Source: a bacterium
GTDB taxonomy: Bacteria; Patescibacteriota; UBA1384; CAILIB01
Length of the DNA: 64,000 nt
Reading direction: 5' to 3'
NCBI GenBank assembly: GCA_037131105.1
Contig: JBAXRQ010000001.1
Location: 258,039 to 322,038 of the forward strand
Shown: in pieces, positions 42,676 to 59,712 of the stretch
How positions within the stretch are numbered: the stretch's first letter is position 1
How the letters are laid out: each line of letters opens with the position of its first letter
The notes under the pieces: generated by a model
Database searches by the model: none
What the model was told of the DNA's origin: nothing
What the model saw: only the letters and a program-made list of their open reading frames with translations
Translations under genes and position numbers: made by a program

Positions 42676-43543
42676 GAGCAGTTCGCTTGAATAAGGTAAG
42701 TAGTGACCTGCCGTCGCCATAGAACGGTAGTAGACTGGCAAGATGTAGTAGGGCGATGGCTTGACCTGCGAAAAGCACACCGGGAAGGGCACTAGCGCGA
42801 GAAACTAACATACTTGTAAGTATACTAACGCCGGCACCTGCCAATGGACCAACTAGTCCTGTGACCGCCTCAACCCACATGTCTAGCGGTGGATGTAATA
42901 TAGCCAGTCGCATACCTCTTCGCAGTACACAGATGGCAGGGTGGTAGCGGCGAAGGATGATGACGTGAGCGTATTCATGTGCGACCAAGCCCATAAACAG
43001 TACCGGTAGGCTCGGTAGAAGCCAGGGTATGGCAGCTGTTGGAAGAACCAGGCTGAGTAGTAGGGCCATAGCCGGGGTGACCAGCCATAGAAGCAGCATT
43101 GCCTGGAAGACTGAAGAACTGATTCCTTTAATAGTTGCTGACCGTCGGACAGCAACCTGAAGAGGCGGGGCGCCGAGGTACAGGAGACTGGCCTTTCGCA
43201 TAAACATTTCTCCCTGCTGAGTCAAACTTCTCCGTATGCTTATACCTCCGATTGTTCCCAGAAACAAAAGGATCTGCCGGGATTCCTTTTCGGAAATATT
43301 ATAACTATCCAGATCAGTGAGCCATTCAGAGACAGAGCTAATTCTTTCGAGCGAGACCAAGGCCTTTCCTGCCCGGACATGCAGCTTGTGCCGTGCGAGC
43401 GTGGCATCGTCCACTAGTTCTCCCTTCTCCACCCGGAGGCCGGGGGAGAGGGAGATGCTGTCGCCAGCGGTAAGCAAGCCGCCACTCCAGCGATAGGGGT
43501 CTATCAGCGTCGACATAGGAAGGTAGCCTTGCCATGTACCCAA
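42656..43543 (-). CDS. membrane zinc metalloprotease (HExxH in TM region; M48/M56-like)
   Basis: HEYAH motif within a hydrophobic segment. N-terminal soluble domain. 295 aa. Confidence 0.45.
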   Translation of the reverse strand: MGTWQGYLPMSTLIDPYRWSGGLLTAGDSISLSPGLRVEKGELVDDATLARHKLHVRAGKALVSLERISSVSEWLTDLDSYNISEKESRQILLFLGTIGGISIRRSLTQQGEMFMRKASLLYLGAPPLQVAVRRSATIKGISSSVFQAMLLLWLVTPAMALLLSLVLPTAAIPWLLPSLPVLFMGLVAHEYAHVIILRRYHPAICVLRRGMRLAILHPPLDMWVEAVTGLVGPLAGAGVSILTSMLVSRASALPGVLFAGQAIALLHLASLLPFYGDGRSLLTLFKRTAHVTSVS

Positions 43544-43707
43544 TCAATACTTACTGACTCGGCTCCACGCCACCCACAGATGGCAATCGCAGCTAAGGCA
43601 ACACTTCCCAAGACTAGTACATACGCCAGGGCGGCAACGATTATCACGGCTACTTCTTTTATCTGATACTGCGCCATTTGGTCGGTAGCGATCATCGTCT
43701 CCTGCAT
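43504..43707 (-). CDS. small single-TM peptide upstream of protease/ABC module
   Basis: ~67 aa, sequence MQETMIATDQMAQYQIKEVAVIIVAALAYVLVLGSVALAAIAICGW.... Overlaps the protease start. Confidence 0.25.
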   Translation of the reverse strand: MQETMIATDQMAQYQIKEVAVIIVAALAYVLVLGSVALAAIAICGWRGAESVSIDWVHGKATFLCRR

Positions 43708-43966
43708 GGTGCTCCTTTCAGTTAACGGGCGGGTAAGAGCATGCCAAGCCATGGCTTGGTCCTTCCGATCGGTGGCGAGGCCTAGGCGCCTGGAATCACC
43801 CTACCCTTTGCTGATAGGAGCTGGCTAGCTAGTTCGATTTTGTAGAAATCAAACTAGCTGAACTTTCATATTGGAAAGGGCCCAACCGACCATATTCGCA
43901 TAGTACGTCATCAAGATTAACTTTTTATTAAACGTGAAAACCGCCTCGACACAGTATCATATTCTG

Positions 43967-44773
43967 TTAGGCGTTTAGTGCCTTCAGGCAGGCCTCAATG
44001 CCTTCCCTTTGGTTCTTCCAGTCCGAGCCCCAGCGTACCGCCGCCTCGATTTCTACATAGGCAATGCCCTGCTCGTCACACCATTCCTTGGCGGTGCCGG
44101 TTTGGCCAAGCTGGTTCCATTCCTCTAACGTGCCGAGGGTATACCCGCTGGCCTTGCTAAATATGTCAGCCAGCTTCTGGGCCTTGCTGTTGTCATTCCC
44201 CATGACGTCGCGCCCGGCGCTATGGAAACCGAAGTAATAGTCGATGTGCTGCTGGGTAATAAACAGAGTAAGGGCCTTGATCTCGGGCTCTGACCTGCCC
44301 CGCTCACCGCAGTACACAGCTGTCTTCTCCTGGTAATCCTTACCGTGGGTCCAGGCTGAGGTCTTTTGGAAGCTGCGGGTGGGGAAGTTGCGGTTCAAAT
44401 CGACGCCGTGGGCGTTTAGTCGGCCTCTGCGGCCGAAGTTATGGAAATCAGGGTGTCGAAGTGCCACTGCCTGCCCGTCAGGGTTAAGACAGGGGACTAC
44501 AAAAAACGTACACTTTTTGTACTCGTCGCGGTGATCACCAAGCCAGGTGATAAGATGGCGGGCAAGCTTGGTAGTGCCGACTTCATTGCCATGGATGGCT
44601 GCAACGAGTAGTATCTTTCGGGGACCGTTGCCGATCCGAAAATAGGGGATTTCACGGTTTTCCAGGGACATGCCAAGCAGCCCAGTACTGGCAGGTAAGA
44701 GCGGCACCCGTTCAAAAAGGGTGTCTCGGACTCCTGTGATGCCCCGTCGGATTCTGCCCAGGATCTTTCTCAT
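43967..44773 (-). CDS. M14-family zinc carboxypeptidase (murein-peptide amidase-like)
   Basis: HGNE zinc-binding motif (HxxE) and N-terminal hydrophobic segment. Confidence 0.55.
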   Translation of the reverse strand: MRKILGRIRRGITGVRDTLFERVPLLPASTGLLGMSLENREIPYFRIGNGPRKILLVAAIHGNEVGTTKLARHLITWLGDHRDEYKKCTFFVVPCLNPDGQAVALRHPDFHNFGRRGRLNAHGVDLNRNFPTRSFQKTSAWTHGKDYQEKTAVYCGERGRSEPEIKALTLFITQQHIDYYFGFHSAGRDVMGNDNSKAQKLADIFSKASGYTLGTLEEWNQLGQTGTAKEWCDEQGIAYVEIEAAVRWGSDWKNQREGIEACLKALNA

Positions 44774-45207
44774 GGAAGTGAGCTACGGTATGTCCTTACC
44801 ATACGGGTAGGAGGCAAAAGTTTCAACGAGTGAGCATATAAAACGACATGCCCTCAGCCGGCGTGGCAAAGGGCATTGGTGATGGGGGCTCGTTGCGGCA
44901 TCGTGCGGCGCAGTCGGGCCTGTACTCGAGGATGAGCGCGTATGCTTTCTCAAAGTTACTCGGACTGTTTCGAACCGTTATCCAGAAGAATTGCACGATT
45001 GAGTCGTTGGTAAACGCGGCGATCTTAACGTGCTGATTAAACCTGCTCAAAAACATGGCAACCTCCTTGTTGTCGAGGCGGTCATATATAAAATCTGCCT
45101 ACATGTCAATCGTAGTCCTACCAGCCCCAATGTGGGTGTGATGAAAAATGAAAAACCACAGGTGCATGCTGCTGCCTGTGGCTTCCCAATGGTTCGATAT
45201 TTTGCCG

Positions 45208-45690
45208 TTAGGCTCCGTCTGCATAATTGCCGAACGGCGGGCGACCCAGCAAGCCCTCCGGTGCCGCTACTGGCGCCCTGTCAGTGTAAAGCTGAAGGGG
45301 GCTCCTTTTCAGTGAGGGCTGCTGTTCTGCCGGGGGTTGCGCCCCCTCCGGGTGGAGTTCCTGAAAGCTCGGCTTCCCCATCTTCTCCAGGCGAGCAGCC
45401 AGTTCCGTCGTCGTCACCAGGACGCCGCTCTCGGCCAGTATGGCAGTGGCTGACATTACTTGGTCGCGCATCCCGATGAGCGCGATCTCCTGCTCTCCCA
45501 GGGCTGCGAACTCGGCTAGGCCGAGTCGCTGCTCGAGGTTCACGGGGATCCGGCGGGCCTCGGCTTCAGCCAGCATTGCCAACACGACGTTGGCATACCA
45601 GGTGAGGTCCCGACCCATCTGGGCGATGTACCCAAGGACCTCTTCCGTTGTCATGGGAGCCTGCGCTCCGCGGTTGTTTTCAGTAGTCAT
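45208..45690 (-). CDS. hypothetical protein in GC-rich (~65 %) segment
   Basis: 160-aa ORF. Composition is clearly atypical for this window. Confidence 0.3.
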   Translation of the reverse strand: MTTENNRGAQAPMTTEEVLGYIAQMGRDLTWYANVVLAMLAEAEARRIPVNLEQRLGLAEFAALGEQEIALIGMRDQVMSATAILAESGVLVTTTELAARLEKMGKPSFQELHPEGAQPPAEQQPSLKRSPLQLYTDRAPVAAPEGLLGRPPFGNYADGA

Positions 45691-45889
45691 CTCTCATCTC
45701 CTCAAAGTGGCTATACGCGGCCTGCGCGCCCATCATTGCTGACGGGTAAATGCTGTACTATCTCAGCTCATCCGGTATGGACGGGCTTATCTAGGTACTT
45801 TGGTTAAGTAGCCAGATAAGCGCGGCCAGCTGGTGATGGGAAATAATACCACAAAAATAGTGCTATGTCAATCCTATTATAAGAAACCC

Positions 45890-46907
45890 GAATTCAATAC
45901 CTAATGCACCACCTGTCTGCTACAACTGGTGCATATGAAACACCTAACATCCTACGAGAGAGAACAGATCGCCTACTGGAAGAGCCAAGGCCTTGGTGTG
46001 CGGGACATCGCGGGAAAGGTGAGCCGTGACCACTCGGTGGTGAGCCGGGAACTGAGGAGAAACAAAGGTCAGCTCTTTCCCTACGAGGCGGCAAACGCCC
46101 AGTACTACGCTGAGCGCAGAAGGAGGATCGCCAACCGCCCGAAGCTTTCCAAGCACCGGGAACTTAAGGAGTGGGTACATGACCAGCTCATGCAAAAGTG
46201 GAGTCCGGAACAAATTGCGGGCCGGCTCAAAGAACACCCTCCCGTCCACCTTGCGGGACTCACCATTAGCCACGAGGCCATCTACCAGTGGATCTACGCC
46301 GAGTCTCCCCGGGGCGCTCCCTGGCTCTACCACCACTTGCGCAGAAAGCACGTTGAGCGGCGGCCAAAGTTCGGTAGGAAGAAGAGAAACCAGGTTAAGA
46401 TACCGGAGCTGGTGCCCATTTCGGAGCGTGGGGAACTAGAGGGGTTCGGCCACTTCGAGGCCGACTCTGTAGTCGGCAAGAACCACAAGCCAGGCCTTTC
46501 CGTCCACTACGAGAAAGCCACTCAGTGGACAAAGCTGCACAAGTTAGAGAGCATGAAGGCTGAGGAGACCCTGGCTGCGCTGGAGGGCACCCTCGCCGAC
46601 CTGCCCCTGGGGTTCGCGGCCTCGGTCACGTTCGACCGGGGCGGCGAGACCGCCCTCCACTACCGCCTGAGGGAGTCCTACGGCGTCGCCACCTACCACT
46701 GCGACCCGTACAGCCCCCACCAGAAGGGAGGGGTAGAGAACGTGAACGGCCTGGTCCGCCAGTTCTTTCCCAAGGGCACCGACTTCCGGTATGTTAGTCC
46801 CGAGACGGTCGCCCTGGTAGAGGATCTCCTCAACAACCGGCCCAGGAAGAAACTGAACTACCAAACCCCTAACGAAGCCATGAGTGGTGCATTAGATTCT
46901 TGAATTC
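45890..46907 (+). mobile_element. IS30-family insertion sequence
   Basis: Terminal inverted repeats gaattcaatacctaatgcaccac (left) and gtggtgcattagattcttgaattc (right). Single DDE transposase. Confidence 0.8.
45929..46903 (+). CDS. IS30-family transposase
   Basis: N-terminal HTH (YEREQIAYWKSQGLGVRDIAG), WSPEQIAGRLK motif and an rve DDE domain. Confidence 0.85.
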   Translation: MHMKHLTSYEREQIAYWKSQGLGVRDIAGKVSRDHSVVSRELRRNKGQLFPYEAANAQYYAERRRRIANRPKLSKHRELKEWVHDQLMQKWSPEQIAGRLKEHPPVHLAGLTISHEAIYQWIYAESPRGAPWLYHHLRRKHVERRPKFGRKKRNQVKIPELVPISERGELEGFGHFEADSVVGKNHKPGLSVHYEKATQWTKLHKLESMKAEETLAALEGTLADLPLGFAASVTFDRGGETALHYRLRESYGVATYHCDPYSPHQKGGVENVNGLVRQFFPKGTDFRYVSPETVALVEDLLNNRPRKKLNYQTPNEAMSGALDS

Positions 46908-47547
46908 ACCATATCCTGCCTATGCTGATTTCCAAGACTATAAGGCTGAAATAGTGGATACGGAAGAGGAGATACTCCGTAAGAGTTTCCAGTATTTAGA
47001 CTGGGCAAATCAGTATCTTGAGCACGTCTCCAGTAATGAAGATGTAAGTAAGGTTATCCAATCTAGTCTTATGCACCTAAAGATAGTAACTCTCTACTTT
47101 ATTGGGCCGGGACTTTCTGCAGCAGTCATCCCTTTAACTCACATTGAAATTCCTGGATTATTTTCTGTAACAGAGAGTCCCTATGGGGTGCGAGACATTC
47201 GTACAAGCTCTAATAACTCGAAGTTGCGTCATGTTAAGGGTAAGACCCAACCATACTGCATACTAAGGATGGTTGCCGAACAATACCAGAGAAATACTTG
47301 GAAAGGGGAGCGTCCAGACAGGATAGAGCTTGCCTATGAGGATATTATTGCCCGATTGAAGGATGCCGAATACTGTTCTTTCCCCATTAAGAAGGACATT
47401 GCCAAACTGCCGTATGACCATCTAACCGACTTATTGTACGAGGTAAAAAGGATAATCTCATTTACTGAAACCCAGGCAAAAGTAACCCAAGCGAATAAAA
47501 AAGTCCGTCTTGTATTCCTGATCCCCAAAAGCGGAGCAGGGAAGTAG
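46900..47547 (+). CDS. hypothetical protein (TTG start inside IS30 right repeat; probably 5'-truncated)
   Basis: 215 aa, AT-rich. Its start overlaps the IS terminal repeat. Confidence 0.3.
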   Translation: MNSPYPAYADFQDYKAEIVDTEEEILRKSFQYLDWANQYLEHVSSNEDVSKVIQSSLMHLKIVTLYFIGPGLSAAVIPLTHIEIPGLFSVTESPYGVRDIRTSSNNSKLRHVKGKTQPYCILRMVAEQYQRNTWKGERPDRIELAYEDIIARLKDAEYCSFPIKKDIAKLPYDHLTDLLYEVKRIISFTETQAKVTQANKKVRLVFLIPKSGAGK

Positions 47548-47904
47548 AGTAGTTCCGCCACTTCCGCCACTGAAATGGATAGCCTTTTATAGGTTATTTT
47601 TTGAATTCTTGACAAAGTGTAATCCCGCTATAGAGGTGGAGTTAGTCGTAAGGACTCTACTAGCCGGAGTGACAGGAAGACTATAAGCAGACCTGTCTAG
47701 GGAGCTGGCCGACCGGAATCAACTATACGGATACCTATCACGAACCGAATAATCTTCTTCTTTTCAGGATTTCTTCTTCTACCGCACCGTACTCGCTACC
47801 GCTCATACGTTGCTGGGACTGGATAACCTAGGATGGGATTCGGGACGGAGGGGAAACGGCTAGGAGTGAAGGGAGGGCCTCCATCTTACCCAAAGCGAAG
47901 CCCT

Positions 47905-48072
47905 ATGCGTCGACAAGTCAACAAACAGACTAAACAACTTAGGGTTTCGGTAGAGCTCCATAAAAAGTTGCGGCTTGAGGCTGCAAAAAAGTGTGTTCCT
48001 ATGGGTGAAATTCTTGTGGAAGTGCTTGAGGGCACATACCTCGATAGTCGTAACTTAAAGGCGAAGAAATGA
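47905..48072 (+). CDS. ribbon-helix-helix (CopG/Arc-like) protein
   Basis: QLRVSVELHKKLRLEAAKKCVPMGEILVEVLE fits an RHH beta-alpha-alpha fold. Confidence 0.4.
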   Translation: MRRQVNKQTKQLRVSVELHKKLRLEAAKKCVPMGEILVEVLEGTYLDSRNLKAKK

Positions 48073-48266
48073 AGGTTAAAACTACGTCATCTAATCTTGA
48101 CCCTCAACGGATTGTAAAAGATGCCGGTCAAGTTTTAGATGAAATGGTATCAGGTCTCTTGGATGAACTTGAGATTCCGCAAAACGATAGAGAGAGATTC
48201 ATATCTGATCTAAAACGAATGATTAATATTTCCTTTGATGAATATTTTGATCAGCTAGGTAGTTAA
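48069..48266 (+). CDS. small acidic hypothetical protein
   Basis: 65 aa. Overlapping stop/start with the flanking genes indicates an operon with the recombinase. Confidence 0.35.
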   Translation: MKVKTTSSNLDPQRIVKDAGQVLDEMVSGLLDELEIPQNDRERFISDLKRMINISFDEYFDQLGS

Positions 48267-48270
48267 TTAT

Positions 48271-49875
48271 ATGGTATACGCCTTCATCTACACTCGGGTA
48301 AGTAGCGAACGTCAGGTTACAGAGGGAAACGGCACTCAGAGCCAAGAACAGCGTTGTCGCTCATATGCCAAATTTCAAGGCTATCAGGTGAAGTTGGTTG
48401 TCCCTGATGATGGGGTTTCCGGTGCAATATTAAATCGGCCAGGAATGAGGAAGCTACTAGAAGAGCTACGAACATTCTCAGGTGAAAAGGTGGTTATTAT
48501 TGATGATATCTCCCGTTTAGCAAGGGATATTAAAACCCATATTGAACTTCGTGCGGCAATTGCTACTTGTGGGGCAACTTTGGAATCTCCTAATATGAAG
48601 TTTGAAGAAACGGCGGTAGGTGAATATATAGAAATGATAATGGCTGCAACCGCTCAATTTCAGAGAAAAGGAAATAGGGAGCAGGTAATTAATCGCCAAC
48701 GTGCCCGCCTTGAAATGGGGTATTGGACGTTCCATGCTCCCCTTGGGCTACATTATGAAAAGCATCCTCTTCATAAAAAGCTTATCACACCAGATCAGAC
48801 AGCTTACAAATTAGCCGAAGGCCTTGAGCGGTATGCTATTGGGTCAATATCCACAAAAAGGGCACTTGCTACACACCTGATTAAAAATGGCTTCTTTGTA
48901 GATGCTCCGTTGGATATTATAGAAAAAAAGCTAACGAGAGTCTTTGATAACTTAAGCCTTTATGCGGGTTATATTGAGTATCCTGCGTGGAACATTGAGA
49001 AAGTAAAGGGTCGTCATACGGCCATAATAGGTGATGACATATATAACCTATTATTGGGAAGAGAGGGTAATCTTCCTGAGCGGCTAGGGAATAGGACACA
49101 ACCTAACTCAGAGTTTATTCTTCGTAACTTTGTACGGTGTCCGCATTGTATGTATGGCTTTACTGCATCTTATGCCAAACCAGGGAAAAAGTTTCCACGG
49201 TATTATTGTCGTAATCAAAAATGTGCCTACTACGGTCGGACTGTACGGAGAGATATTCTGACTGATAAGTTTGAGGAGCTTCTTAAGTCCCTAGAGGCAA
49301 AAGATGGGCTAATACAGCTTCTAGAGAGACTTAGTAAGGAGGAGTGGACTAAAAAACTAGAGAGCTGGGAAAGAACCGGTAAATTATCTGAGCAAAGAGT
49401 GGAGGAATATTCTAGGGAATTGGCGAGAGCTACTAAGCGCTTGTTAAAAACTACGAATGAGCATGTTGCAGAAGAGATTGAGATAGAAATTGATAAGCTG
49501 CGGGCACAACAGAAAGGTCTTGAAATAGACGTGAGTAAATACCGTCAGTCTCCTCCTAACTTCGAAGAGGCTTTGGGGCGTGTTAGCACTCTTCTTAAGA
49601 GCCCTTACTCCTATTGGAAATCAGGTTCAGATGAACAAAAAAGAACGGTTCACAATATAGTGTTTACCGTTCCCCCTTCCTATGACATAACTAAAGGAGT
49701 TTACACCGTTAGTTATGCGCTTCCATACCAGGTTTTAAATACTCTGAAAGAAGATAGATCTCGGGTGGTGGACCAGAGCCTAAAAACTTGGAACACCTTT
49801 TTCAAGTATGTGGAGGAGTGGGAGCCGAAGCTGGAAGAGATTTACGGCAATTTAGACTACTCAAATGGCTTTTAA
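48271..49875 (+). CDS. large serine recombinase
   Basis: N-terminal MVYAFIYTRVSSERQ catalytic motif, recombinase domain, Cys-rich zinc ribbon (CPHC...CRNQKC) and coiled coil. Confidence 0.85.
   Translation: MVYAFIYTRVSSERQVTEGNGTQSQEQRCRSYAKFQGYQVKLVVPDDGVSGAILNRPGMRKLLEELRTFSGEKVVIIDDISRLARDIKTHIELRAAIATCGATLESPNMKFEETAVGEYIEMIMAATAQFQRKGNREQVINRQRARLEMGYWTFHAPLGLHYEKHPLHKKLITPDQTAYKLAEGLERYAIGSISTKRALATHLIKNGFFVDAPLDIIEKKLTRVFDNLSLYAGYIEYPAWNIEKVKGRHTAIIGDDIYNLLLGREGNLPERLGNRTQPNSEFILRNFVRCPHCMYGFTASYAKPGKKFPRYYCRNQKCAYYGRTVRRDILTDKFEELLKSLEAKDGLIQLLERLSKEEWTKKLESWERTGKLSEQRVEEYSRELARATKRLLKTTNEHVAEEIEIEIDKLRAQQKGLEIDVSKYRQSPPNFEEALGRVSTLLKSPYSYWKSGSDEQKRTVHNIVFTVPPSYDITKGVYTVSYALPYQVLNTLKEDRSRVVDQSLKTWNTFFKYVEEWEPKLEEIYGNLDYSNGF
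49765..49875 (+). repeat. recombinase 3'-end repeat R0 (within gene)
   Basis: gtggtggaccagagcctaaaaacttggaacacc... is repeated at 50475 and 51383. Confidence 0.7.
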
Positions 49876-49880
49876 TTCAA

Positions 49881-50336
49881 TTAGATACCATCCTGGCTTT
49901 CCTGGTACTGTCCGAATACTTTTTCGTATACAAGCGAAGCGGTATCCAGTCGGCCTTGAGCAGCATATTTGTCGTCGGTGCCAGCGTTTTCAAGCTCAGT
50001 CCTGAAGTTCTCTTTAAAGTTTTCGAGAGCATCGGCCAAAAGGCTGATCTCTTGGTGGGAGAGTGCTTCGTCATCACCTAGCTTCAGCCCGATTTCACCG
50101 ATAGTGCTAAGTTTTCTTGCTACGCTAGCTTTTTCGCTGGAAGTATCTACGCCATCTTCACGCTGCTGTCTAAAGTATTCCCTTTCTTTCGTCATTAGCT
50201 CCTTTTGCATTCGGTCCAGCGCAGCATACATAGTCGTTTTTTCCTTCTCAGAATATAAACCCTGAACTTCCGGTGCCTTAACTGCCTCGTTGGCTGTCAC
50301 TTTAATATCTTCTGGTTGATATCCTTCTATACTCAT
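49881..50336 (-). CDS. hypothetical protein (cassette A cargo)
   Basis: 151 aa, acidic, coiled-coil-like. Confidence 0.45.
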   Translation of the reverse strand: MSIEGYQPEDIKVTANEAVKAPEVQGLYSEKEKTTMYAALDRMQKELMTKEREYFRQQREDGVDTSSEKASVARKLSTIGEIGLKLGDDEALSHQEISLLADALENFKENFRTELENAGTDDKYAAQGRLDTASLVYEKVFGQYQESQDGI

Positions 50337-50474
50337 AAAGATCTTTTAGATTGAATTATGCTGTTATATTACCATAAAAGTATTTATAAGATCCTAGATA
50401 CCAAAAAACAGCCTGTTAGGCTGCTCTGGGTTCCAAGTGTCAGTTTGGTGTCGCCGGATTAAACCTGGAAAAAT

Positions 50475-50594
50475 CGTGGTGGACCAGAGCCGAAAAACTT
50501 GGAACACATTCTTTGAGTACGTAACAGATTGGGAGCCGAAATTAAGGCAGGTTTACGACTATGAACCTAAAGCAAGGACCGATCCACCAGGATG
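50475..50594 (+). repeat. recombinase 3'-end repeat R1 (gene remnant, in-frame to stop)
   Basis: Encodes VVDQSRKTWNTFFEYVTDWEPKLRQVYDYEPK.... Compare the recombinase C-terminus VVDQSLKTWNTFFKYVEEWEPKLEEIYGNL. Confidence 0.7.
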
Positions 50595-50699
50595 AGTTGT
50601 GTTGTTTAATGGATCAACGTACCTGAAAAATTCACAATAAAAATTGCCCCGACAGGCTGCTATGCAGTGATCTGACGGGGCGGTGGGTGCGATTTGGGC

Positions 50700-51032
50700 T
50701 TAGTACTTTGGCTCGTACTCGCCGACCGACGCTACAGTCTGCTCGAATAGTACGACCTTCTTCCTGAGTACCATGCGGGCGACCCTGGCCCAGCCCTCTG
50801 CGTCGCTGACGCTAAGATGGGGATTGCTTTCATCCATGCAGACGAAGCCTTGCTTCAGGTCCGGGACCTTCAGGCCGACGAGATCGAGGAACTCGGTGAG
50901 CGAGACCGCGTTCTGCGGATGCATCTCCGGGCTACGCAGGCTGACCAGGATCTGGTCTGGCCGCATCCTGTCCCTCATCGAGACATAGACTGTTTCCGCT
51001 GCCTTGGCTTCTTCGGTTGTAAAGTGCTTCAT
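50700..51032 (-). CDS. hypothetical protein (cassette B cargo)
   Basis: Start MKHFTTEE preceded by SD AGGAGGAAGG. 110 aa. Confidence 0.45.
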   Translation of the reverse strand: MKHFTTEEAKAAETVYVSMRDRMRPDQILVSLRSPEMHPQNAVSLTEFLDLVGLKVPDLKQGFVCMDESNPHLSVSDAEGWARVARMVLRKKVVLFEQTVASVGEYEPKY

Positions 51033-51169
51033 ATCCTTCCTCCTTGGAATGAGATTCAGCGCGAATATAACCCGAATTCGTCCAATTGTCAAGGAGTATA
51101 CGAAAAAAGCCTAGCAGAAAGTGTAGATTACACGTAATAGTTAGACTGTTTTCTACTCTGTAAAAAGTG

Positions 51170-51350
51170 GTGGAGGTGGGAGAATCGCACGTGGCTCTCT
51201 TGCCGCTCGGGTTGGGAACCCTCGCTGGCTCGCTCCCAGGAAACCCACGGTTTCCTTGACGCCGCTGGTGCGGCTACCTTCCTCCACGGAAAAACTCCCG
51301 TTTTCCCGACCCCTTTCCCCGTGTGACTCTCTTTCCTGAAAACTTTACCA
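51170..51350. repeat. att-like motif + REP composite element (copy E6)
   Basis: gtggtggaggtgggagaatcgcacgtggctc followed by ctcgctcccaggaaacccacggtttcc and cttcctccacggaaaaactccc. Confidence 0.5.
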
Positions 51351-51384
51351 ACATAAAAACAGCTCTGAGAGCTGTGTTTATGTT
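51350..51384. other. conserved hairpin at cassette boundary
   Basis: aacataaaaacagctctgagagctgtgtttatgtt, identical to 52649-52683. Confidence 0.6.
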
Positions 51385-51487
51385 GGTGGACCAGAGCTTA
51401 AAAACTTGGAACACTTTTCTTGAGTGCGTATGGGATTGGGAGCCGATGCTGAGGGAGATCTATGGGGATTTGAATCAAGAGGGCTGA
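51383..51487 (+). repeat. recombinase 3'-end repeat R2 (gene remnant)
   Basis: Encodes VDQSLKTWNTLLECVWDWEPMLREIYGDLNQEG*. Confidence 0.7.
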
Positions 51488-51531
51488 CTTGAATGCACTA
51501 AATGGTGTAAAGTTCGTACATTCACAATACG

Positions 51532-52521
51532 GTGAATTTGCACGTATCACCCTGTGAAGACGTGCCAAGCTTTTGGTGTTATTCTATACACATGCAAGAG
51601 TTTCCCTATCTCAATACCAAAATTCCAGTTCAACACTCAGCCAAGGAGCTGAGTACTTTCGTCGAAGGGTTTCCTGGCTTTAAATTCTGCATTTATCTCG
51701 CCCACAAGGACGAAGAGGGATGGGAGCGCTCGACCAGCAGGGCTTACATGAACCGCCTATTCCCCCGTTTCCTCTATGTTCCAGTAGACATCCTCAAGGA
51801 AGATGTTGATGAGCTACGAGCCGTCTATTCTCTTGTAACTGTAAGTCCGGAGATTGTTGCCATAAACCAGACCCAGCCGCACAAGAGCAATGCGGTTATG
51901 CAAGAGTTCCTAGAGGAAGGAGATATCCCGGCAAACGTCGACGCCATAGTAAAGGATGAGGGAGGAATGCTGGTAGCGTATGACCTTAACGGACCGTCGT
52001 TCATCCGATGGTTCAAGGACGAGGCGGGCGGGTTCGAGTCGGCAACTGTGCTGCTCGTAGGGGTAGGCGGTGTCGGCGAGCCTATCGCGCGGGCCTTGGC
52101 CTACGAGCACACTGCATGCGTCTACCTTATCGACCCTGTTAGTAAGGTTGAGCTCCAGGCAGAGCTTTCCGAGCTTATGGACGTGGAATACTACACCCTG
52201 CAGCACGACCTGGATCTGCCGGAGACAGTTGAGCGCCTTGTGCTCATCAACTGCGCCGGCAAGGAGGGCGTAGAGGGCCAGTCAAAGGTTGAGGAATGGC
52301 TTACCAGATATAAGGAAAAGGGGTTCATTTTTGTTGATCTCAGGCCTCACTTGGATATTGATATTGTAAAGAAGGCGGAGTCACTAGGGTGGAAGGCTTT
52401 TACGGGTCACGGAATGAATGCCTACAACGATCATGTGCTGGTATCTAAGATTGCGGAGCTGATCGGGGGGACATCGCCAAAATTCGAAGAGTTCAGAAAA
52501 GCAGTGGCAGGGGTCTCTTAG
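51532..52521 (+). CDS. shikimate/quinate dehydrogenase-like NAD(P)-binding protein (cassette C cargo)
   Basis: NQTQPHK resembles the AroE NvTiPhK motif. Rossmann GVGGVG. NCAGKEG. 329 aa. Confidence 0.45.
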   Translation: MNLHVSPCEDVPSFWCYSIHMQEFPYLNTKIPVQHSAKELSTFVEGFPGFKFCIYLAHKDEEGWERSTSRAYMNRLFPRFLYVPVDILKEDVDELRAVYSLVTVSPEIVAINQTQPHKSNAVMQEFLEEGDIPANVDAIVKDEGGMLVAYDLNGPSFIRWFKDEAGGFESATVLLVGVGGVGEPIARALAYEHTACVYLIDPVSKVELQAELSELMDVEYYTLQHDLDLPETVERLVLINCAGKEGVEGQSKVEEWLTRYKEKGFIFVDLRPHLDIDIVKKAESLGWKAFTGHGMNAYNDHVLVSKIAELIGGTSPKFEEFRKAVAGVS

Positions 52522-52524
52522 GAT

Positions 52525-52650
52525 TCGGTGGGAGAATCGCGCGTCGCTCGCTTCCGTTCGGCATAATGCCTCACTGCTCGCTCCCAGGAAACCCTCCCCG
52601 GTTTCCGACCCTTCCGACTGTGCAACTCTCTTTCCTACAAACCCAACCAA
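52525..52650. repeat. att-like motif + REP composite element (copy E7)
   Basis: ggtgggagaatcgcgcgtcgctcgc...ctcgctcccaggaaaccctccccggtttccgaccc. Confidence 0.5.
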
Positions 52651-52683
52651 CATAAAAACAGCTCTGAGAGCTGTGTTTATGTT
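52649..52683. other. conserved hairpin (second copy) at array end
   Basis: aacataaaaacagctctgagagctgtgtttatgtt followed by ggtgga. Confidence 0.6.
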
Positions 52684-52689
52684 GGTGGA

Positions 52690-53057
52690 GGTGGCGAGAG
52701 TCGCACTCGCGTCCAAAGTGGTTGCGGCAGCGGTTCTACATGCTTAGTCCCGTTCAATTTAACCTCCCCTGAGCGCGGGACGACTCTGGGATCGGCTTCT
52801 ACCGTAAGCTTATCAGCGACGACGGTAGCTGTCGCTGGGGCATCCTCACTATATGTCGCTAAGCCTCTCCGGTCAGGAGGCAGAAAGGTAAGCGGCGATC
52901 GTTATTAGGCGAAAGCTGGTGCGAAAGTCGCAGGAGTCAGCAAGCTGGCTACAGCGGACTTAACGCGAGCAAATGCAGTTGCACTTGTGGTGTGTGTACA
53001 TAGTTTAACGAGGGCAAATACACATCCTCGGCATGCTGGTACTGCGACAGGACCACC
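52690..53057 (+). ncRNA. structured RNA, candidate RNase P RNA (rnpB)
   Basis: ~365 nt with no credible ORF and many hairpins. UUAGUCCCG (52744) is complementary to CGGACUUA (52961), as in the P4 helix. ACAGCGGACUUAACG resembles CR-V. GAAAGGUAAGCGGCG resembles CR-II. The terminal segments GGUGGCGAGAGUCGC / GCGACAGGACCACC could pair as P1. Confidence 0.3.
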
Positions 53058-53200
53058 CTGTCGAATAAATACACCCCCATGTTGTTAAGCTCCAAGTGCC
53101 TGCTGATCATAGCACGAACATGCCCTTTTGTCAATTGACCAACAGGTTGGGAGATGGTACTACTAGGGCGTATCGATTCCGTATTGAAAGGGGCGTGGAT

Positions 53201-53581
53201 ATGGGCGCACATAGTGCGACGCTGTCGATTGATGGGGCAATTGCAGCTGCCTACTTGGCCTTGTGGCTGATGGTATGGCTGATCTGCCTGTTCGAGGCAT
53301 TCTGGCTTTTTCGTTACTGTCTTGCCAGGAAAAACGGATGTATGGAAAGCCGCGAGTACCGGCTGTACTCCAACCAGGTACTGATGTCCTGGCTGATGAC
53401 GTTCGGGTCGGCGGCAGCGGTAACCCTGCTCTTTTGGGTGGTGGCTCCGGTAAGGAACGTTGCCATACTGTCCGCGCAGTCACTGTGGTACCAGGTGGCG
53501 GTAATGACTGTGCAGGTACTGATCCTGGCACATGTCGGCAACGATCCGCCCATGATCAGACAATACGGAGGTGAACCTTGA
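53201..53581 (+). CDS. hypothetical membrane protein
   Basis: Start at MGAHS with SD AAAGGGG. 3-4 TM helices. Confidence 0.35.
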   Translation: MGAHSATLSIDGAIAAAYLALWLMVWLICLFEAFWLFRYCLARKNGCMESREYRLYSNQVLMSWLMTFGSAAAVTLLFWVVAPVRNVAILSAQSLWYQVAVMTVQVLILAHVGNDPPMIRQYGGEP

Positions 53582-53842
53582 TAGCCTTGCTCGGAACTAT
53601 GTATGTGTGCGTCATTACGCATTGGGAGATTTCCGTGTCGGTGCTGGTCTGTCTTGGGACGGCGTATGTCGTTAAGGATGTTCCCCGGCAGTATCGTCGC
53701 TAGGCCGAGAGTGATTTGGGGTATACCACGAGGAGGGTGAACATGATTCCGATCTGCTTTGAGTTGAGGCTGTATGAAGACGATGATGGCTATTATGCCT
53801 ACAGAAGGAGAAAGCTGAAGAAGCGACGACCTTCTACTGGAG

Positions 53843-54217
53843 GTGGATGGCATGGATAGTCTGGGTATGCTGGCGACAGCGGTGCTTGTCGGCCTCGTCG
53901 CAACGGCTATGGAAGCGGCAGTACTGTGCCTGCTGCAGTTTGTTCAGTGGCGGCTGGAGGAGCGCTTTTCCTGGGGAATGGACAGTGAGGAACGTTTCAA
54001 TAGTTTTCTTCGCGACCTGGTCCTGATGAAGCTTTCTGCTTCAGTCCTGCTCATGGTAGCATTCGTGGCTTTTCCGGAACCGTTGTCATGGTTCGGGGTA
54101 GCGCTTGGCTGCAACGCCGTGTTCAAATGGCTGCTCATCATCAAGAGACGTGAGTCGCAGCTTGGCTGGGCAGTGTATGGGAAACTCTTTAAGGGAGGAG
54201 GATACGCCTGCGCGTAA
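53843..54217 (+). CDS. hypothetical membrane protein
   Basis: 124 aa with 3 TM helices. Preceded by a 38-aa upstream ORF with SD GGAGGG (53744-53860). Confidence 0.4.
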   Translation: MDGMDSLGMLATAVLVGLVATAMEAAVLCLLQFVQWRLEERFSWGMDSEERFNSFLRDLVLMKLSASVLLMVAFVAFPEPLSWFGVALGCNAVFKWLLIIKRRESQLGWAVYGKLFKGGGYACA

Positions 54218-54329
54218 GTCAGGATAGGAATGGTTGTCGTTTAGAGTCGCCGGTCCCCTGTGGGCCGGCGCTTCTTTTTACTCTGTAAACCTTGACTTTT
54301 ACCCATGTAAATTATACTTTACATCTGAT

Positions 54330-54968
54330 ATGTCCGAACCACGCCACGTTATTCACATCCGTATCCGCGACCTGCGCCGCGAGCGGGCCCTGACCCAGGA
54401 GGAGCTGGCCGAGGCCCTGGGCCTTTCCCGCCAGTCCATCAACGCCATGGAGGCCGGCCGTTGCTTGCCTTCCTTGCCGGTCGCCCTGCAGATCGCCTCG
54501 TACTTCTCGGTGCCCCTCGGCACTATCTTCGGAGTGGACGAACGCAGCGCCATGACCTCTGCCCTGATTCCCTGGACGCCACTGCGCGACCTACGTGAGT
54601 CATTGGCCGGACTTGAGGACGAACGACTGCGCTGGCTGCCGGCACCCACCCCCATCCTTCCCACCGCCAACCTGCGCCAGGACGAGCACAGCATCCAGAT
54701 AGAGCTTTGCCTGCCCGGCTACCGCAAAGAGGATCTGGCCATCGAGGTGGGCGAGGACTTCGTGACTGTGGCCGGACAGCCCAGCTTCACTGAGATCGAC
54801 TCATATATGCGCCAGGAGTTCATGCTGCAGGAGTTCCAGCGCACCATCTCATTGCCTTCCTCTGTGTACTCTGACCGGGCCGAGGCTAAGATGGAGGATG
54901 GTATCCTGCGCATTACCGTGCCGCGTCGGGAAGAGCGTTCCCGCAGCTCCCGCATTACTATTAGCTAG
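54330..54968 (+). CDS. XRE-family HTH domain fused to Hsp20/alpha-crystallin domain
   Basis: The N-terminal LTQEELAEALGLSRQSINAMEAG is an HTH_XRE. The C-terminal IQIELCLPGYRKEDLAIEV...DGILRITVPR is an alpha-crystallin domain. Confidence 0.6.
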   Translation: MSEPRHVIHIRIRDLRRERALTQEELAEALGLSRQSINAMEAGRCLPSLPVALQIASYFSVPLGTIFGVDERSAMTSALIPWTPLRDLRESLAGLEDERLRWLPAPTPILPTANLRQDEHSIQIELCLPGYRKEDLAIEVGEDFVTVAGQPSFTEIDSYMRQEFMLQEFQRTISLPSSVYSDRAEAKMEDGILRITVPRREERSRSSRITIS

Positions 54969-54971
54969 AAT

Positions 54972-55940
54972 ATGAAGAAGACTTCGCCTGTCATGGATCG
55001 GCTGAAGTCTCTCTGGCCTTGGGGCATTATTATCATCTCGATAGGCGTCGGCCTGGGCCTCAGCGGCTACCAGCTTGTTCAGCATGTAAGGGCCTTGGCT
55101 AGCGCCAGTGAGCTTTCCCGCTACCAAAAGTTCCCGGCCCTCAAGTCCACCGACCGTATAACCATAGTCTCACCCCATCTGGACGATGAGACCCTGGGAT
55201 TGGGAGGCTTCGTGGCCCAGGCCCGGCAGCAGGGGATACCGGTTTCCGTGATATTTATGACTAATGGCGACGACTTTTCCTTCGGAGCCGACCTGGAGCT
55301 GGGCACCGGCTATCCTACTCCCCAGAAGCTGCTGGCCTACGGGGCCAAACGTCAGGATGAGGCGCTGGCCGCCACCGCCAAGCTGGGCATTGATCCCAAG
55401 GACGTCTATTTCCTTGGGCTTCCCGACCGGGGGCTTAAGGTACTATTGGACAAGAAGGATGGTACAAGTCTTGTTACCTCCAGTGGTACCCTTGAAAATC
55501 ACTCTCCGTACGCCCGTTCGTATGTCCCAAATCTACCGTATAGTCGCAATGCCTTGGAAGCTGCCCTGGCCAAGGCAGTAAACGCGACCAGTCCCACCGA
55601 GGTCTTTACTACGCTTCCGGACGACGTGCATACCGACCATGCATCCACTGCCCAGTTTGTCATGCAGATCTCCTCGAAGTTGTCGTCGGCACCGAAGCTC
55701 TACTTCTTCCTCATTCATTATCCTAAGTTCCCTAATCCCAAGGGTAGCGACAGCAGCTACCCCTTGCTGCCTCCAGACAAGCTGAAGGACCGGCAGTGGC
55801 AGGTGATCAGTCTGTCGGCTGAAGATGTTGATCTTAAAACCAGCGCGCTGGAGCTGTATGCTAGCCAGCTGATGGTGCCGTTCTCGGGCAAGGGGCTGCG
55901 GGCGTTCGTACGGCAGAACGAACTGGTGCTGCCCAAATAA
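54972..55940 (+). CDS. PIG-L/LmbE-family N-acetylglucosaminyl deacetylase, membrane anchored
   Basis: VSPHLDDETLG motif (HxDD) and an N-terminal TM. Confidence 0.65.
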   Translation: MKKTSPVMDRLKSLWPWGIIIISIGVGLGLSGYQLVQHVRALASASELSRYQKFPALKSTDRITIVSPHLDDETLGLGGFVAQARQQGIPVSVIFMTNGDDFSFGADLELGTGYPTPQKLLAYGAKRQDEALAATAKLGIDPKDVYFLGLPDRGLKVLLDKKDGTSLVTSSGTLENHSPYARSYVPNLPYSRNALEAALAKAVNATSPTEVFTTLPDDVHTDHASTAQFVMQISSKLSSAPKLYFFLIHYPKFPNPKGSDSSYPLLPPDKLKDRQWQVISLSAEDVDLKTSALELYASQLMVPFSGKGLRAFVRQNELVLPK

Positions 55941-55994
55941 CACCTTTCAGCCGCCCATGTGAATGGGCGGCTGGGTCAAAACGTGCTGCCCCGC

Positions 55995-56981
55995 TTATGG
56001 AGTCGCACTTGGAGTCGTGTTTGCAGACGGAATGTGGGTCTGGGGGTTATGCCGTTTCGCCTCTATTTGTTCAGACGTAGGCAGTAGCAGGTCGGTGATG
56101 ACACCGAGCTTGGAAAGCGTCCAGATCACATACCATGAGAGGTCGGGCTGCCACCAGTAGACACTGTGTCTGACCGAATAGGCCATGGAGTGGTGGATGC
56201 GGTGCCCGCCTTCTCCAGCGGCTACGAGCATAACCCAGAAGTTATCCGTGCTCTGGTCTCCTTTGCTGCTGGTAAACTCACGCCTACCAAACAGGTGGCA
56301 GATTGAGTTGACGGCAAAGGTCGACTGATGGGTCAGGCCTAATGCCATCAAAGAAAGGAGAATGCCAACTGGTCCAAATAACAGGTAGGCAAAAACAAAT
56401 CGTAGCAGTAGCCACCAGAAGTAGGTACGGTCCATGAAGAGCACAAGCCGGTCCTTGTCGAGGTCCCTTTTGTACTGCTGGATGACGCTTGGATAATTAA
56501 TCCTGAACATCCAGCCGACGTGCGCGTGCCAGAACCCTTTCCAGAAATTGTCCCATCCATGGTGGGGACTGTGCGGGTCACCCTCAATGTCGCTGAAGGC
56601 GTGGTGTTTCCGGTGTGAAGCCACCCAGGAGATAGCCGGTCCCTCAGCTGACGTATTTGCCAATGCCAGGATAAGGAACTTGAATATCAGGCCGGGAATA
56701 CCCTTTGGCTTGAAGCCGCTATGGGTAAGAAAGCGATGCAGGCCGATCGTCACGCCCAGACAGCCAAGCTGCCAGGTAACAATGAGAAAAGCTAGCTCTG
56801 CGAGGGCAATGCCGTTCACGCAGAAATAAACGGTTCCAAGAAGCAATGCGGCAAAGGGGGCGAATACCACCACTGCAGCCAGCACCTTGAAGTTTCTGCT
56901 TAGAAAACGACGGATGGATAGACTCTTCTGAATGTTCTTCCATCGTTTTTGTATTTTCAGAGTCCAGTTTTGAGATTTCAT
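55995..56981 (-). CDS. membrane fatty-acid (acyl-CoA/acyl-lipid delta-9-type) desaturase
   Basis: Three His boxes: HRFLTH, HRKHH and HRIHH. 4 TM helices. Confidence 0.65.
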   Translation of the reverse strand: MKSQNWTLKIQKRWKNIQKSLSIRRFLSRNFKVLAAVVVFAPFAALLLGTVYFCVNGIALAELAFLIVTWQLGCLGVTIGLHRFLTHSGFKPKGIPGLIFKFLILALANTSAEGPAISWVASHRKHHAFSDIEGDPHSPHHGWDNFWKGFWHAHVGWMFRINYPSVIQQYKRDLDKDRLVLFMDRTYFWWLLLRFVFAYLLFGPVGILLSLMALGLTHQSTFAVNSICHLFGRREFTSSKGDQSTDNFWVMLVAAGEGGHRIHHSMAYSVRHSVYWWQPDLSWYVIWTLSKLGVITDLLLPTSEQIEAKRHNPQTHIPSANTTPSATP

Positions 56982-57114
56982 GTATTCCTCCGACTGGCAA
57001 GCTTAGGGAGCTTGTTCCAGTTCAGAAAAAGTATAGCACAAATCTTATGCTTGGCATGGTGCAGCGGCTTCCTGAGCTGCTATAGTGAATACGCACTAGT
57101 AAGTAACGATTCCC

Positions 57115-57492
57115 ATGGACTCAGCCGCTATCCAGAAACGCCTCGACCTGCTCGAGAAGTCAGAAGCCGAATTCAAGACCAAGAAGGATATGTTGAACGA
57201 CAGCCTGAAGAGTGACGAGGAGCTTATCACCCTTGAGGACAAGATGAAGGACGCCCGCCAGCGCTATACCGCCCAGAAGCAGGCCTTGCTCAATGAGCCT
57301 GAGAATCGCAAGCTGATGGACGACCTGAAGGACCTGACCCAGGAGATCAAGGACACCAAAAAGCTGCTGGGCGACGAGCTCATCGCCTATTTCATGAAGA
57401 ACCAGACCTTGGAGTATGTAACGCCCTCCGGTGAGAAGAAGCGCTTCTCGGTATCTGCCAAGTTTGTCCGCGGGAAGGAAGACGGGGAGTAA
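57115..57492 (+). CDS. hypothetical coiled-coil protein
   Basis: 125 aa, highly charged, heptad-like repeats. Confidence 0.4.
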   Translation: MDSAAIQKRLDLLEKSEAEFKTKKDMLNDSLKSDEELITLEDKMKDARQRYTAQKQALLNEPENRKLMDDLKDLTQEIKDTKKLLGDELIAYFMKNQTLEYVTPSGEKKRFSVSAKFVRGKEDGE

Positions 57493-57639
57493 TCCGTTGC
57501 CGGGGAGAGGATAATCTGGTAAGGTAGGATGGACTCAAGCGATCTTCCCGTGTAGTTTTATAAAAGTCGGGGCAATATCCGACTGTAAAGTCTGTCTTCG
57601 ACAGATTTTGACAGCCGTTGTTGCCCCGATTGAAAATCA

Positions 57640-57716
57640 GGGCAATTAGCTCAGGTGGTTAGAGCGCCACATTGACATTGTGGAGGTCACTGGTTCGAGT
57701 CCAGTATTGCCCACCA
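57640..57716 (+). tRNA. tRNA-Val (anticodon GAC)
   Basis: Cloverleaf GGGCAATTAGCTCAGGTGGTTAGAGCGCCACATTGACATTGTGGAGGTCACTGGTTCGAGTCCAGTATTGCCCACCA. Confidence 0.9.
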
Positions 57717-57752
57717 AGAGAAAAGACAGGTCTTCGGACCTGTCTTTTCTCT
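57717..57752 (+). terminator. intrinsic terminator after tRNA-Val
   Basis: agagaaaagacaggtcttcggacctgtcttttctct. Confidence 0.6.
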
Positions 57753-57756
57753 TGTG

Positions 57757-57850
57757 TCCGCAGTAGCGGACTCGAAACCATTGGTTCGCTCGCGCTCCTG
57801 CGCTCGGGCAGGAAGCGTTGCAATCGTTCGCCTAGCGAACAGAAGCAAGT
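57757..57850. repeat. REP-like element (copy E8)
   Basis: Contains gttcgctcgcgctcctgcgctcgggcaggaagcg and gttcgcctagcgaac hairpins. Confidence 0.4.
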
Positions 57851-58161
57851 CCAGTTTTTCACTGCTATCAAAGCAGCGAATTAACGCCTGTCAAAATCAG
57901 TGAAACTGACTTGACTGGCGGATATTGCCCACCAAACTGGACATACATCAGGTTAAACCCTGCAAAAGAGAGCCCTTTCCGGGCTCATTTTTTGTGCTTG
58001 TTCAACCTTCCTCGGGTTCAAGTGCTCGATATTGCATAAGGGGGTCTTTGGTATTACCCTGTACATAATTTGAACGCATAATATTTATCGAACACCAGAA
58101 TAATACTTGACAAATATATCGCAAGATGTACACTTAACATGTACACATTAAATACTTCTCT

Positions 58162-58452
58162 ATGGCAAAGCTCTTGTCCCTTGTCGAGGCGCGGAACAAC
58201 CTGAGCAGTCTTGTCGATGACGTTTCGGAGAACAATACCCGCGTAGTCATCCAGAAGCGGGGCAGGGACAAGGTCGTGATGATCAGCGCGGACGACTACC
58301 TGCGCTCCATTACCCCTGTCGACCCACTTTTTGCAGAGTCGCGCAGACAGGCAGCCCTAAGCGGTTCGAATGACCTCGGGGGGTCTGAGATTGAGGCAGA
58401 GATACGAGCTGCCCGGAGAGAGCTCAGCCGGTCAGGAAAGAGCAATGGCTGA
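58162..58452 (+). CDS. Phd/YefM-family antitoxin
   Basis: SLVEARNNLSSLVDDV...VVIQKRGRDKVVMISADDY. Confidence 0.6.
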   Translation: MAKLLSLVEARNNLSSLVDDVSENNTRVVIQKRGRDKVVMISADDYLRSITPVDPLFAESRRQAALSGSNDLGGSEIEAEIRAARRELSRSGKSNG

Positions 58453-58855: not shown

Positions 58856-58914
58856 GTGTAGTGTCCTTGTCCATGAGATGCCCACCAGTACAGTGGCCTG
58901 CTTATGAGGTTGGC

Positions 58915-59619: not shown

Positions 59620-59712
59620 AGGATGGGTTAGGTGTTTCGGACCATGTATTACTAGTATATGTCTGGGAACGCCTAGGGACAAGAAGCCTGGCTCTCGGAT
59701 GGGGTCTTGTTA

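Follow-up and report, generated by a model that had tools for sequence, protein, structure and literature searches.

Here, we analyzed a 64,000-nucleotide (nt) stretch of the contig JBAXRQ010000001.1 (the window; all coordinates are relative to this stretch), in which the gene for a large serine integrase, here named int0, is followed by a short array of units that repeat the 3' end of this gene. The array ends at the gene for transfer-messenger RNA (tmRNA; ssrA). We conclude that it probably arose by tandem accretion of serine-integrase elements, together with structured repeats that we call U modules, at the 3' end of ssrA. Read by the short cores that separate them, the components are the int0 body, unit A, unit B, a first U module (U_B), unit C with a second U module (U_C), and the tmRNA gene.

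The preliminary description of this DNA had noted that the 3' end of the recombinase gene recurs twice downstream, in frame and with its own stop codons, and a repeat search combined with a profile of the integrase tails bore this out. The repeat spans 88 nt at 49766–49853 (R0), 50477–50564 (R1), and 51384–51471 (R2) with 74–78% identity, and each copy is in frame, carries its own stop codon, and encodes the peptide VVDQS(L/R)KTWNTF...WEP. On its own, the open frame of 34–39 codons in the copies is not significant; the family-tail profile, run on the 64-kb window, matched R0, R1, and R2 only (E about 1e-10). Homology among the copies begins precisely at the core. Their nt 1–33 are 88–94% identical, including at synonymous positions, while nt 34–93 are 60–67% identical, and the conservation of the first 33 nt fits a constraint at the DNA level on the P' arm, as expected of an arm of an attachment (att) site. 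The core, TGGTGGA with a characteristic flank, occurs at 49766, 50477, 51168, 51384, and 52683 (J1 to J5), that is, at five unit boundaries, and a degenerate core pattern gave 10 matches where 2.9 were expected. The segments that separate the repeats contain unrelated genes and differ in GC content. A second repeat of 109 nt (51282–51390 and 52581–52689) overlaps a 41-nt hairpin stretch that is identical at 51347–51387 and 52646–52686. The suggestion that cassettes B and C end with a shared module held in that the motif GGTGGGAGAATCGC (at 51175 and 52527), a stretch resembling repetitive extragenic palindromic (REP) sequences, and the hairpin are found together twice, at 51168–51390 and 52527–52689, but the copy of the motif at 52527 lacks the TGGTGGA core. 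An assembly artefact, which had been raised as a concern, is unlikely because L091, an independently produced ENA assembly, matches the window at 100% identity over 44234–64000 and thus across the entire array.

The structured RNA that had been noticed at the end of the array is tmRNA. ARAGORN and a full-length match to Rfam RF00023 (114 bits) place ssrA on the minus strand at 52683–53078, with a promoter-like site at 53106–53134 on the same strand. In this orientation, the tmRNA 3' end UCCACCA has TGGTGGA as its complement (J5, 52683–52689), and the bacterial attachment site attB there is unoccupied. The proposal of repeated site-specific insertion at one core, shared by the recombinase 3' end and the end of the RNA gene, stands, with the correction that the RNA contributes its 3' and not its 5' end. 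The hairpin directly follows the tmRNA gene on the minus strand and scores as an intrinsic terminator. In a relative that was found via the neighbouring helix-turn-helix (HTH)-Hsp20 gene (L095), the site is empty, with a near-identical hairpin followed by the core and then tmRNA (...AACATAAAAACAGCTACTAGAGCTGTTTTTATGT-TGGTGGA-GGTGGCGAGAATTGCAC...) and with no recombinase nearby. Because this empty site carries the hairpin, the hairpin and ~45 nt beside it are native ssrA flank and not the cassette end for which the hairpin had been taken. In the window, a hairpin directly at the core is present at two of the five junctions and absent from J1–J3. We note that the T-loop region of the tmRNA (52683–52712) reads GUGCGACUC, and the Rfam consensus at this position is GUUCGAUUC. 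Among relatives, Rfam found tmRNA genes that ARAGORN missed in L002, L014, L028, L035, L047, L051, L065, and L077.

The int0 gene (48271–49875, plus strand) is present in its unsplit form, with a phage-type attachment site (attP) in place, as judged from Pfam, the family alignment, and an AlphaFold2 (AF2) model. The catalytic domain matches Pfam Resolvase (PF00239; E=1.2e-23, residues 4–150). In an alignment of 29 family sequences, R9, S11, D78, D79, R82, and R85 as well as the cysteines C290, C293, C313, and C318 are invariant, and int0 has every invariant residue. The Zn_ribbon_recom domain scored 22.5 bits in int0, just under the cut-off of 25.3, and homologues have both PF07508 and PF13408. 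The AF2 model comprises catalytic, recombinase, and zinc-ribbon domains and a coiled coil with long helices at 345–393 and 397–425. Based on these features, int0 can be classified as a large serine recombinase (serine integrase) with predicted attP x attB catalysis and a predicted 2-bp crossover; the junction sequences have TGGTGGA as their common core. The core J1 (49766–49772, plus strand) lies in codons 499–501, with the integrase body as its left arm and R0 as its right arm. In the AF2 model, the crossover falls in a low-confidence or disordered linker (481–507) ahead of a terminal helix (504–526). R0 (49765–49875, plus strand) is thus the int0 tail past the core, representing the putative P' arm and the C-terminal helix, as supported by the repeat, the profile, and the AF2 model.

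How such a gene end could come to be repeated is suggested by the relatives of int0. One scan of species-representative genomes yielded 549 of them, in Patescibacteria, Proteobacteria, Armatimonadota, Planctomycetota, and others, and we surveyed 80 loci from species-representative genomes. At 60 of these 80 loci, the integrase open reading frame (ORF) extends into a tRNA or tmRNA gene that lies in antisense orientation (53 identified by ARAGORN and 7 more by Rfam); in the ARAGORN set, the overlapped genes encode tRNAs for Arg, Ala, Leu, Ser, Tyr, Thr, or Val, or tmRNA. In L002, L090, and L097, the serine integrase ORF continues into antisense tmRNA at the TGGTGGA core, and the closest homologue of int0 (P0002 of L002; 48% identity) does so at the int0 core codon (...CGT-TTGGTGGA-GGTGGCGAGAGTCTCAC). 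More distant homologues end in peptides such as MVGPAGFEPATS or VEMPGIEPGSNV, which are translated antisense tRNA or tmRNA. The reciprocal product is also present: at least 12 loci (L013, L018, L020, L024, L038, L041, L047, L057, L062, L072, L077, and L079) have an orphan tail with the motif [VLM]V[DE]x5W[NH]x[FLI]x6Wx3L, which is situated 4.7–7.8 kb upstream of the fused integrase and shares its strand and, counted from the core, its frame. The earlier view of the repeats as what is left of the C-termini of related recombinases is supported. In L093, a truncated integrase is still fused to tmRNA and a decayed orphan tail of the KTWNT subtype lies ~5 kb away beside a terminator hairpin; this subtype, to which all three tails in the window belong, was otherwise found in L093 only. 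A metagenome scan with the tmRNA 3' end returned a single match, L090. The relatives behave as integrative elements of 5–8 kb or as proviruses of 13–50 kb; an IMG/VR contig (L108) carries an integrase with an intact tail, and other proviruses have a tRNA-Ala-fused integrase at their end.

From the fused ORFs and the orphan tails together, we infer that attP lies within the integrase ORF, ~35 codons before the stop codon, and that attB is formed by the CCA-bearing 3' end of tRNA and tmRNA genes. The left junction attL would then read flank, core, tail, and the right junction attR would read integrase body, core, t(m)RNA. Integration would fuse the integrase body to the antisense t(m)RNA and leave the last ~35 codons, the R tail with its P' arm, orphaned at the other end of the element, while excision would rebuild the full integrase gene. 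The target may be recognized mainly through the core and the arm on the t(m)RNA side. In L004 (11520–11790; also in L012 and L005), an integrase body is joined at TGGTGGA to an ORF of another recombinase in the middle of its 'Recombinase' domain; the right arm of this site, GTGTGCGAAAGTTGCAC, resembles the tmRNA arm, GGTGGCGAGAGTCGCAC, and the junction looks like an off-target insertion. Separately, in L001, L003, L006, L008, L010, L011, L016, L017, L026, and L030, the integrase ORF does not enter a tRNA or tmRNA gene. Most of this set keep an R-type tail (the tail profile missed L016 and L026), and they lie on contigs of chromosomal size in metagenome-assembled genomes of Armatimonadota and Planctomycetota, with no tRNA or tmRNA gene within 10 kb. 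L044 contains two integrase copies and could not be interpreted. In L097, a small element beside tmRNA encodes a terminase small subunit (6863–7279; Terminase_2), which recalls a phage satellite. Matches to LOOT RNA (RF03000) were found inside the L065 element (8420–8533) and in L028 (465–572).

In the window, the three cargo ORFs of the preliminary description (151 aa (amino acids), 110 aa, and shikimate-dehydrogenase-like) were all recovered. Unit A (711 bp) consists of R0, the 151-aa gene (49881–50336, minus strand; an ORF without family assignment), and its upstream region X1 (50337–50476, minus strand), which by direct reading ends exactly at core J2 and contains, at about 50405–50432 on the minus strand, a stem-loop with a T-run behind it. 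Unit B (691 bp) consists of R1, the 110-aa gene (an ORF at 50700–51032, minus strand), and X2. Its left end (50476–50595, plus strand) is formed by core J2 (50477–50483) and the orphan tail R1, as identified by repeat, core, and profile. Both genes are oriented opposite to the array, and the 110-aa gene has a sigma-70-like promoter at 51064–51092 on the minus strand that matches at 11 of 12 positions. X1 and X2, the left arms, are unlike each other and unlike the integrase-side arm. As candidates for decayed integrase 3' ends they were rejected, since the family hidden Markov model, run on a six-frame translation, matched the tails only. Core J4 (51384–51390) and the orphan tail R2 (together 51383–51487, plus strand) form an attL-type junction composed of a native-type hairpin, the core, and an R tail. 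Unit C together with U_C comprises R2, a divergent shikimate-dehydrogenase-like (AroE-like) gene (51592–52521, plus strand), the coreless stub_C, a spacer, and a hairpin. The AroE-like family (252 homologues at about 45–53% identity) is an ordinary chromosomal family in many genomes of the candidate phyla radiation (CPR; L109–L112). The AroE-like gene was considered and rejected as a native neighbour of ssrA, as other CPR genomes place its homologues away from tmRNA and recombinases. Because the homologues are chromosomal and so placed, the gene here is captured or relocated host-type cargo. Homologues of the 151- and 110-aa proteins, and of the 215-, 79-, and 65-aa proteins encoded upstream of int0, were not detected in any fetched locus, and the tail-adjacent genes of other elements are unrelated to the cargo in the window and to each other.

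U_B and U_C belong to a family of structured repeats of ~120–180 nt with seven copies in the window (510–683, 4810–4936, 5048–5199, 13725–13797, 16506–16642, 51168–51343, and 52526–52642). All copies lie just downstream of a minus-strand gene, namely, tRNA-Arg-TCT, tRNA-Arg-TCG (two copies in tandem), tRNA-Gly, tRNA-Pro, and tmRNA (two copies). Full copies open with a stub that repeats the last 15–23 nt of their own neighbouring gene, followed by a structured spacer and then by a terminator hairpin that abuts the gene. U_B (51168–51383, plus strand) is made up of core J3 (51168–51174), a 16-nt stub of the tmRNA 3' end, a REP-like structured spacer that folds with z = -4.8, and a copy of the terminator hairpin (51347–51383); U_C (52527–52682, plus strand) is made up of a coreless stub, a spacer, a native-type flank, and the terminator hairpin (52646–52682). 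The U modules are a repeat family separate from the integrase elements, and many t(m)RNA genes of this genome have one downstream. We considered whether they are fragments of tmRNA and rejected this, because an Rfam search of 49700–52700 by E-value gave no partial tmRNA match and only the first 16–23 nt match the gene end. The family was not found in the fetched loci of relatives, and units of the same design and unrelated sequence are present in L020 (Peribacteria) and L057 (Woeseiaceae). We suggest that U modules are miniature or remnant integrative elements; each one would add a second landing site, consisting of a core and a tmRNA-like arm.

The most economical history of the array would involve insertion only at cores next to tmRNA-like arms. 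R1 and R2 would be orphan tails from related elements and R0 the tail now joined to int0, and each unit would have entered at a TGGTGGA core beside an arm that resembles the tmRNA 3' end, whether the real gene end or a 16-nt stub. The starting point would be two U modules in tandem downstream of ssrA, as at tRNA-Arg-TCG. One element would have entered between hairpin_B and stub_C, at the core there, and would have lost its integrase by a deletion that also took one core, leaving R2, the AroE-like gene, and the coreless stub_C. The element that carries int0, and then units A and B, would have entered at the core of stub_B, and the real attB at the end of ssrA would never have been used. Both this order of insertion and the loss of the integrase from the unit with R2 and the AroE-like gene are proposed. 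Units A and B could be either remnants or satellites mobilized in trans. Accretion at t(m)RNA ends in other genomes is supported by L020, in which two full integrases stand in tandem with a stub-spacer-hairpin unit between them; by L062, in which an old integrase 3' remnant is joined at the core to a new tail; by L057, with the layout stub, spacer, hairpin, core, R; and by L065, which is described below.

Five observations weigh against accretion as the origin of the array. First, int0 is unsplit although a directly oriented attB of native type is located 2.8 kb downstream, and a simple model predicts an int0–tmRNA fusion. Second, no attL was detected for the int0 element: left of int0 there is no R-tail match and no stub, and 41443–49766 contains no TGGTGGA. 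(An R-like peptide at 46945 was tried as the attL tail of this element and discarded because the tail profile did not recover it.) Third, no product of recombination was observed: the exact hybrid proteins predicted for J1xJ2, J1xJ3, J1xJ4, and J1xJ5 are absent from a collection of 15 billion proteins, in which connection it is important to note that only two or three assemblies of the organism exist. Fourth, the hairpin is 100% identical between U_B and U_C, while the rest of the module is only 81–89% identical. Fifth, units A and B are alike in layout, end exactly at cores, and retain nothing of an integrase body. Such a layout is not what random decay predicts, and site-specific deletion or satellites mobilized in trans would explain it better.

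The last of these points leads to the alternative that survives best, in which units A, B, and possibly C are active, non-autonomous single-gene cassettes. Each would carry a site of the form X-TGGTGGA-R, and a family integrase such as int0, acting in trans, would move the cassettes, which would accumulate in the stretch from the integrase gene to ssrA. They would have kept the recombinase 3' end because it is the P' arm. We consider this possible and, on balance, unlikely. Beyond their shared layout of R tail, convergent gene with upstream region, and exact cores, units A and B are of the same size, their genes are unrelated to each other, and the three tails are of one subtype. Moreover, if a circle with an attL-type site recombined with a canonical attR, the product would be int-core-R-cargo-arm-core-tmRNA, exactly the junctions of unit A. 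A unit of the same kind also occurs in another CPR phylum. L065 (Levyibacteriota) contains an integrase-less 778-bp unit composed of an R tail, one convergent gene, and a hairpin; the unit runs up to the core of a canonical, tmRNA-fused element, and its R is 88% identical to the tail of this resident element. However, 5 kb separate the L065 unit from the integrase, the unit being at the far end of the element. In addition, X1 and X2 share no likeness with the integrase-side arm or with each other, no circles or alternative junctions were detected in the protein collection, and both assemblies that span the array agree. Large serine integrases normally accept no pairs other than attP x attB or, in the presence of a directionality factor, attL x attR. 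Such units could also be made by deletion of full elements, whether site-specific or ordinary.

A more far-reaching version, which we regard as doubtful, is that the exchange of the C-terminal tail serves as a built-in switch. When free, the element would produce an integrase bearing the conserved helical tail; once integrated, its enzyme would lack this tail or end in one read from antisense tRNA, and its directionality would differ. With the target defined by the core and the t(m)RNA-side arm alone, the end of ssrA and the stubs copied from it would serve repeatedly as landing sites, at which integrase-less single-gene cassettes with just the P' arm would be captured and released. If this were true, it would amount to a serine-recombinase cassette system in CPR bacteria.

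The preliminary description had likened the array to an integron. A true integron analogue would require int0 to be a stationary platform with its primary site in its own 3' end, serving promoterless, hairpin-ended cassettes from a common promoter, which we consider highly improbable. The likeness is one of superficial layout: as in integrons, a recombinase gene is followed by mostly one-gene units that share a common core. Here, however, the enzyme is of the serine type and not an IntI-type tyrosine recombinase, and it is located in a low-GC mobile element; attC sites, an attI platform, and a common promoter are lacking. The insertion point is set by the tmRNA 3' end and its short copies rather than by a recombinase platform, and the hairpin is the tmRNA terminator. 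The 151- and 110-aa genes read against the array, the latter with its own promoter-like site. The relatives are ordinary integrative elements or proviruses, and in canonical ones the orphan tail is at the far end of the 5–8 kb element and not beside the recombinase. Least probable of all is a local tandem duplication of the hairpin-core-R block by homologous recombination or slippage with subsequent divergence, or an assembly artefact: U_B/U_C and R0/R1/R2 have diverged to a broadly similar extent and a Logan contig ends within the exact 41-nt hairpin repeat, but the independent assembly spans the array with zero differences, the inter-repeat segments are unrelated genes of differing GC content, R homology starts exactly at the core, and elsewhere the family leaves single, unduplicated orphan tails at attL.

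The statement that no such architecture is known was too strong, as tandem islands at ssrA are classical. The window shares with them the ssrA 3' end as target, stacked elements, displaced copies of the 3' end, and an integrase gene beside the array. As in island arrays at t(m)RNA genes, one end is formed by an intact tmRNA gene, and displaced tmRNA 3'-end copies (stubs at 51168–51190 and 52527–52542) and att scars, comprising the orphan tails at 50476 and 51383 and the five cores, mark the unit boundaries. The known cases have tyrosine integrases and identity blocks that restore the gene, whereas the window has a large serine integrase and a repeat that consists of the 3' end of the gene for this integrase. 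Further, the Islander criterion for tandem islands is one integrase per island, whereas this array has a single integrase and 49876–52700 is without integrase remnants. Accretion of integrative and conjugative elements (ICEs) and cis-mobilizable elements (CIMEs) in Streptococcus, and arrays of integrative mobile elements exploiting Xer (IMEXs) at dif, depend on tyrosine recombinases, either the integrase of the element or host XerCD. These systems resemble the window in site-specific insertion beside a remnant, in the mixture of autonomous and recombinase-less elements, and in regeneration of the target; they differ in that the enzyme here is a large serine integrase, which normally is strictly attP x attB. 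In the integration-dependent immunity of mycobacteriophages, reportedly described by Broussard et al. in 2013, attP lies in the repressor gene and integration by a tyrosine integrase is said to remove a degradation tag. There, too, attP is in an ORF and integration alters the C-terminus of a phage protein, but that protein is the repressor, whereas here it is the integrase itself.

The closest parallel in mechanism is offered by the 'suicidal' integrases of the SSV type (SSV1, pTN3, and pT26-2 of archaeal viruses and plasmids), in which attP also lies in the integrase ORF, a tRNA gene is the target, and the split gene flanks the element. These self-splitting enzymes are tyrosine recombinases and were reported in a 2021 review to be exclusive to Archaea (PMC8371274). 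In the family described here, the placement of attP in the ORF and the partition of the gene are indicated by the fusions at 60 of 80 loci and the orphan tails at 12 or more, but the enzymes are bacterial serine recombinases from hosts of many phyla. Moreover, only the last ~35 codons are removed and replaced by a tail encoded by the antisense t(m)RNA, so that a single ORF continues to encode both the catalytic and the DNA-binding domains. With respect to the target, serine integrases were stated in the Islander study not to be known to target tRNA genes (PMC4383910), and TIGER found 14 of 297 serine cases at such genes, which were called previously unreported and unproven (PMC7192596). Within the literature covered, no account was found of a serine integrase that has attP within its ORF and targets t(m)RNA genes, which is absence of evidence within that literature. 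What is unusual here is a serine integrase that splits its own gene, and two integrase-less single-gene units bounded by cores.

The family contradicts the reported view of serine integrases at t(m)RNA genes (PMC4383910, PMC7192596) and that of self-disruption as a trait of Archaea only (PMC8371274). It suggests a simple route by which integration could reprogram the integrase itself, and explains odd gene calls of recombinases that end in peptides of the 'GFEPATS' type. The array shows how small-cargo arrays can build up at ssrA in reduced CPR genomes. As short targets that are conserved among bacteria, tRNA and tmRNA 3' ends are also of interest for integrase-based genome engineering.

Upstream of int0, the low-GC element (E0) contains accessory ORFs of 215, 79 (with a weak HicB-like match), and 65 aa (46900–48266, plus strand; GC 0.40–0.49). 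Its left edge is occupied by an insertion sequence of the IS30 family (45896–46905, plus strand) with a transposase ORF at 45929–46903, terminal inverted repeats, and GAATTC on both flanks; the transposase assignment is supported by a match to Pfam HTH_38 on the L091 gene call. A second island (5238–8260) has TGGTGC at each end and is inserted at tRNA-Arg-TCG, between the tRNA and a U hairpin. It encodes a serine recombinase of 521 aa (5355–6920, minus strand) whose gene is directed outward and ends 117 nt short of the junction, a layout unlike that of int0, and at its right end a stem-loop read as a terminator lies about 30 nt from the tRNA end. Finally, a fragment of a family-like serine recombinase (residues ~147–276; 21097–21465, minus strand) points to tRNA-Arg-CCT (20100–20174, plus strand) and probably represents a decayed element at a third tRNA gene.

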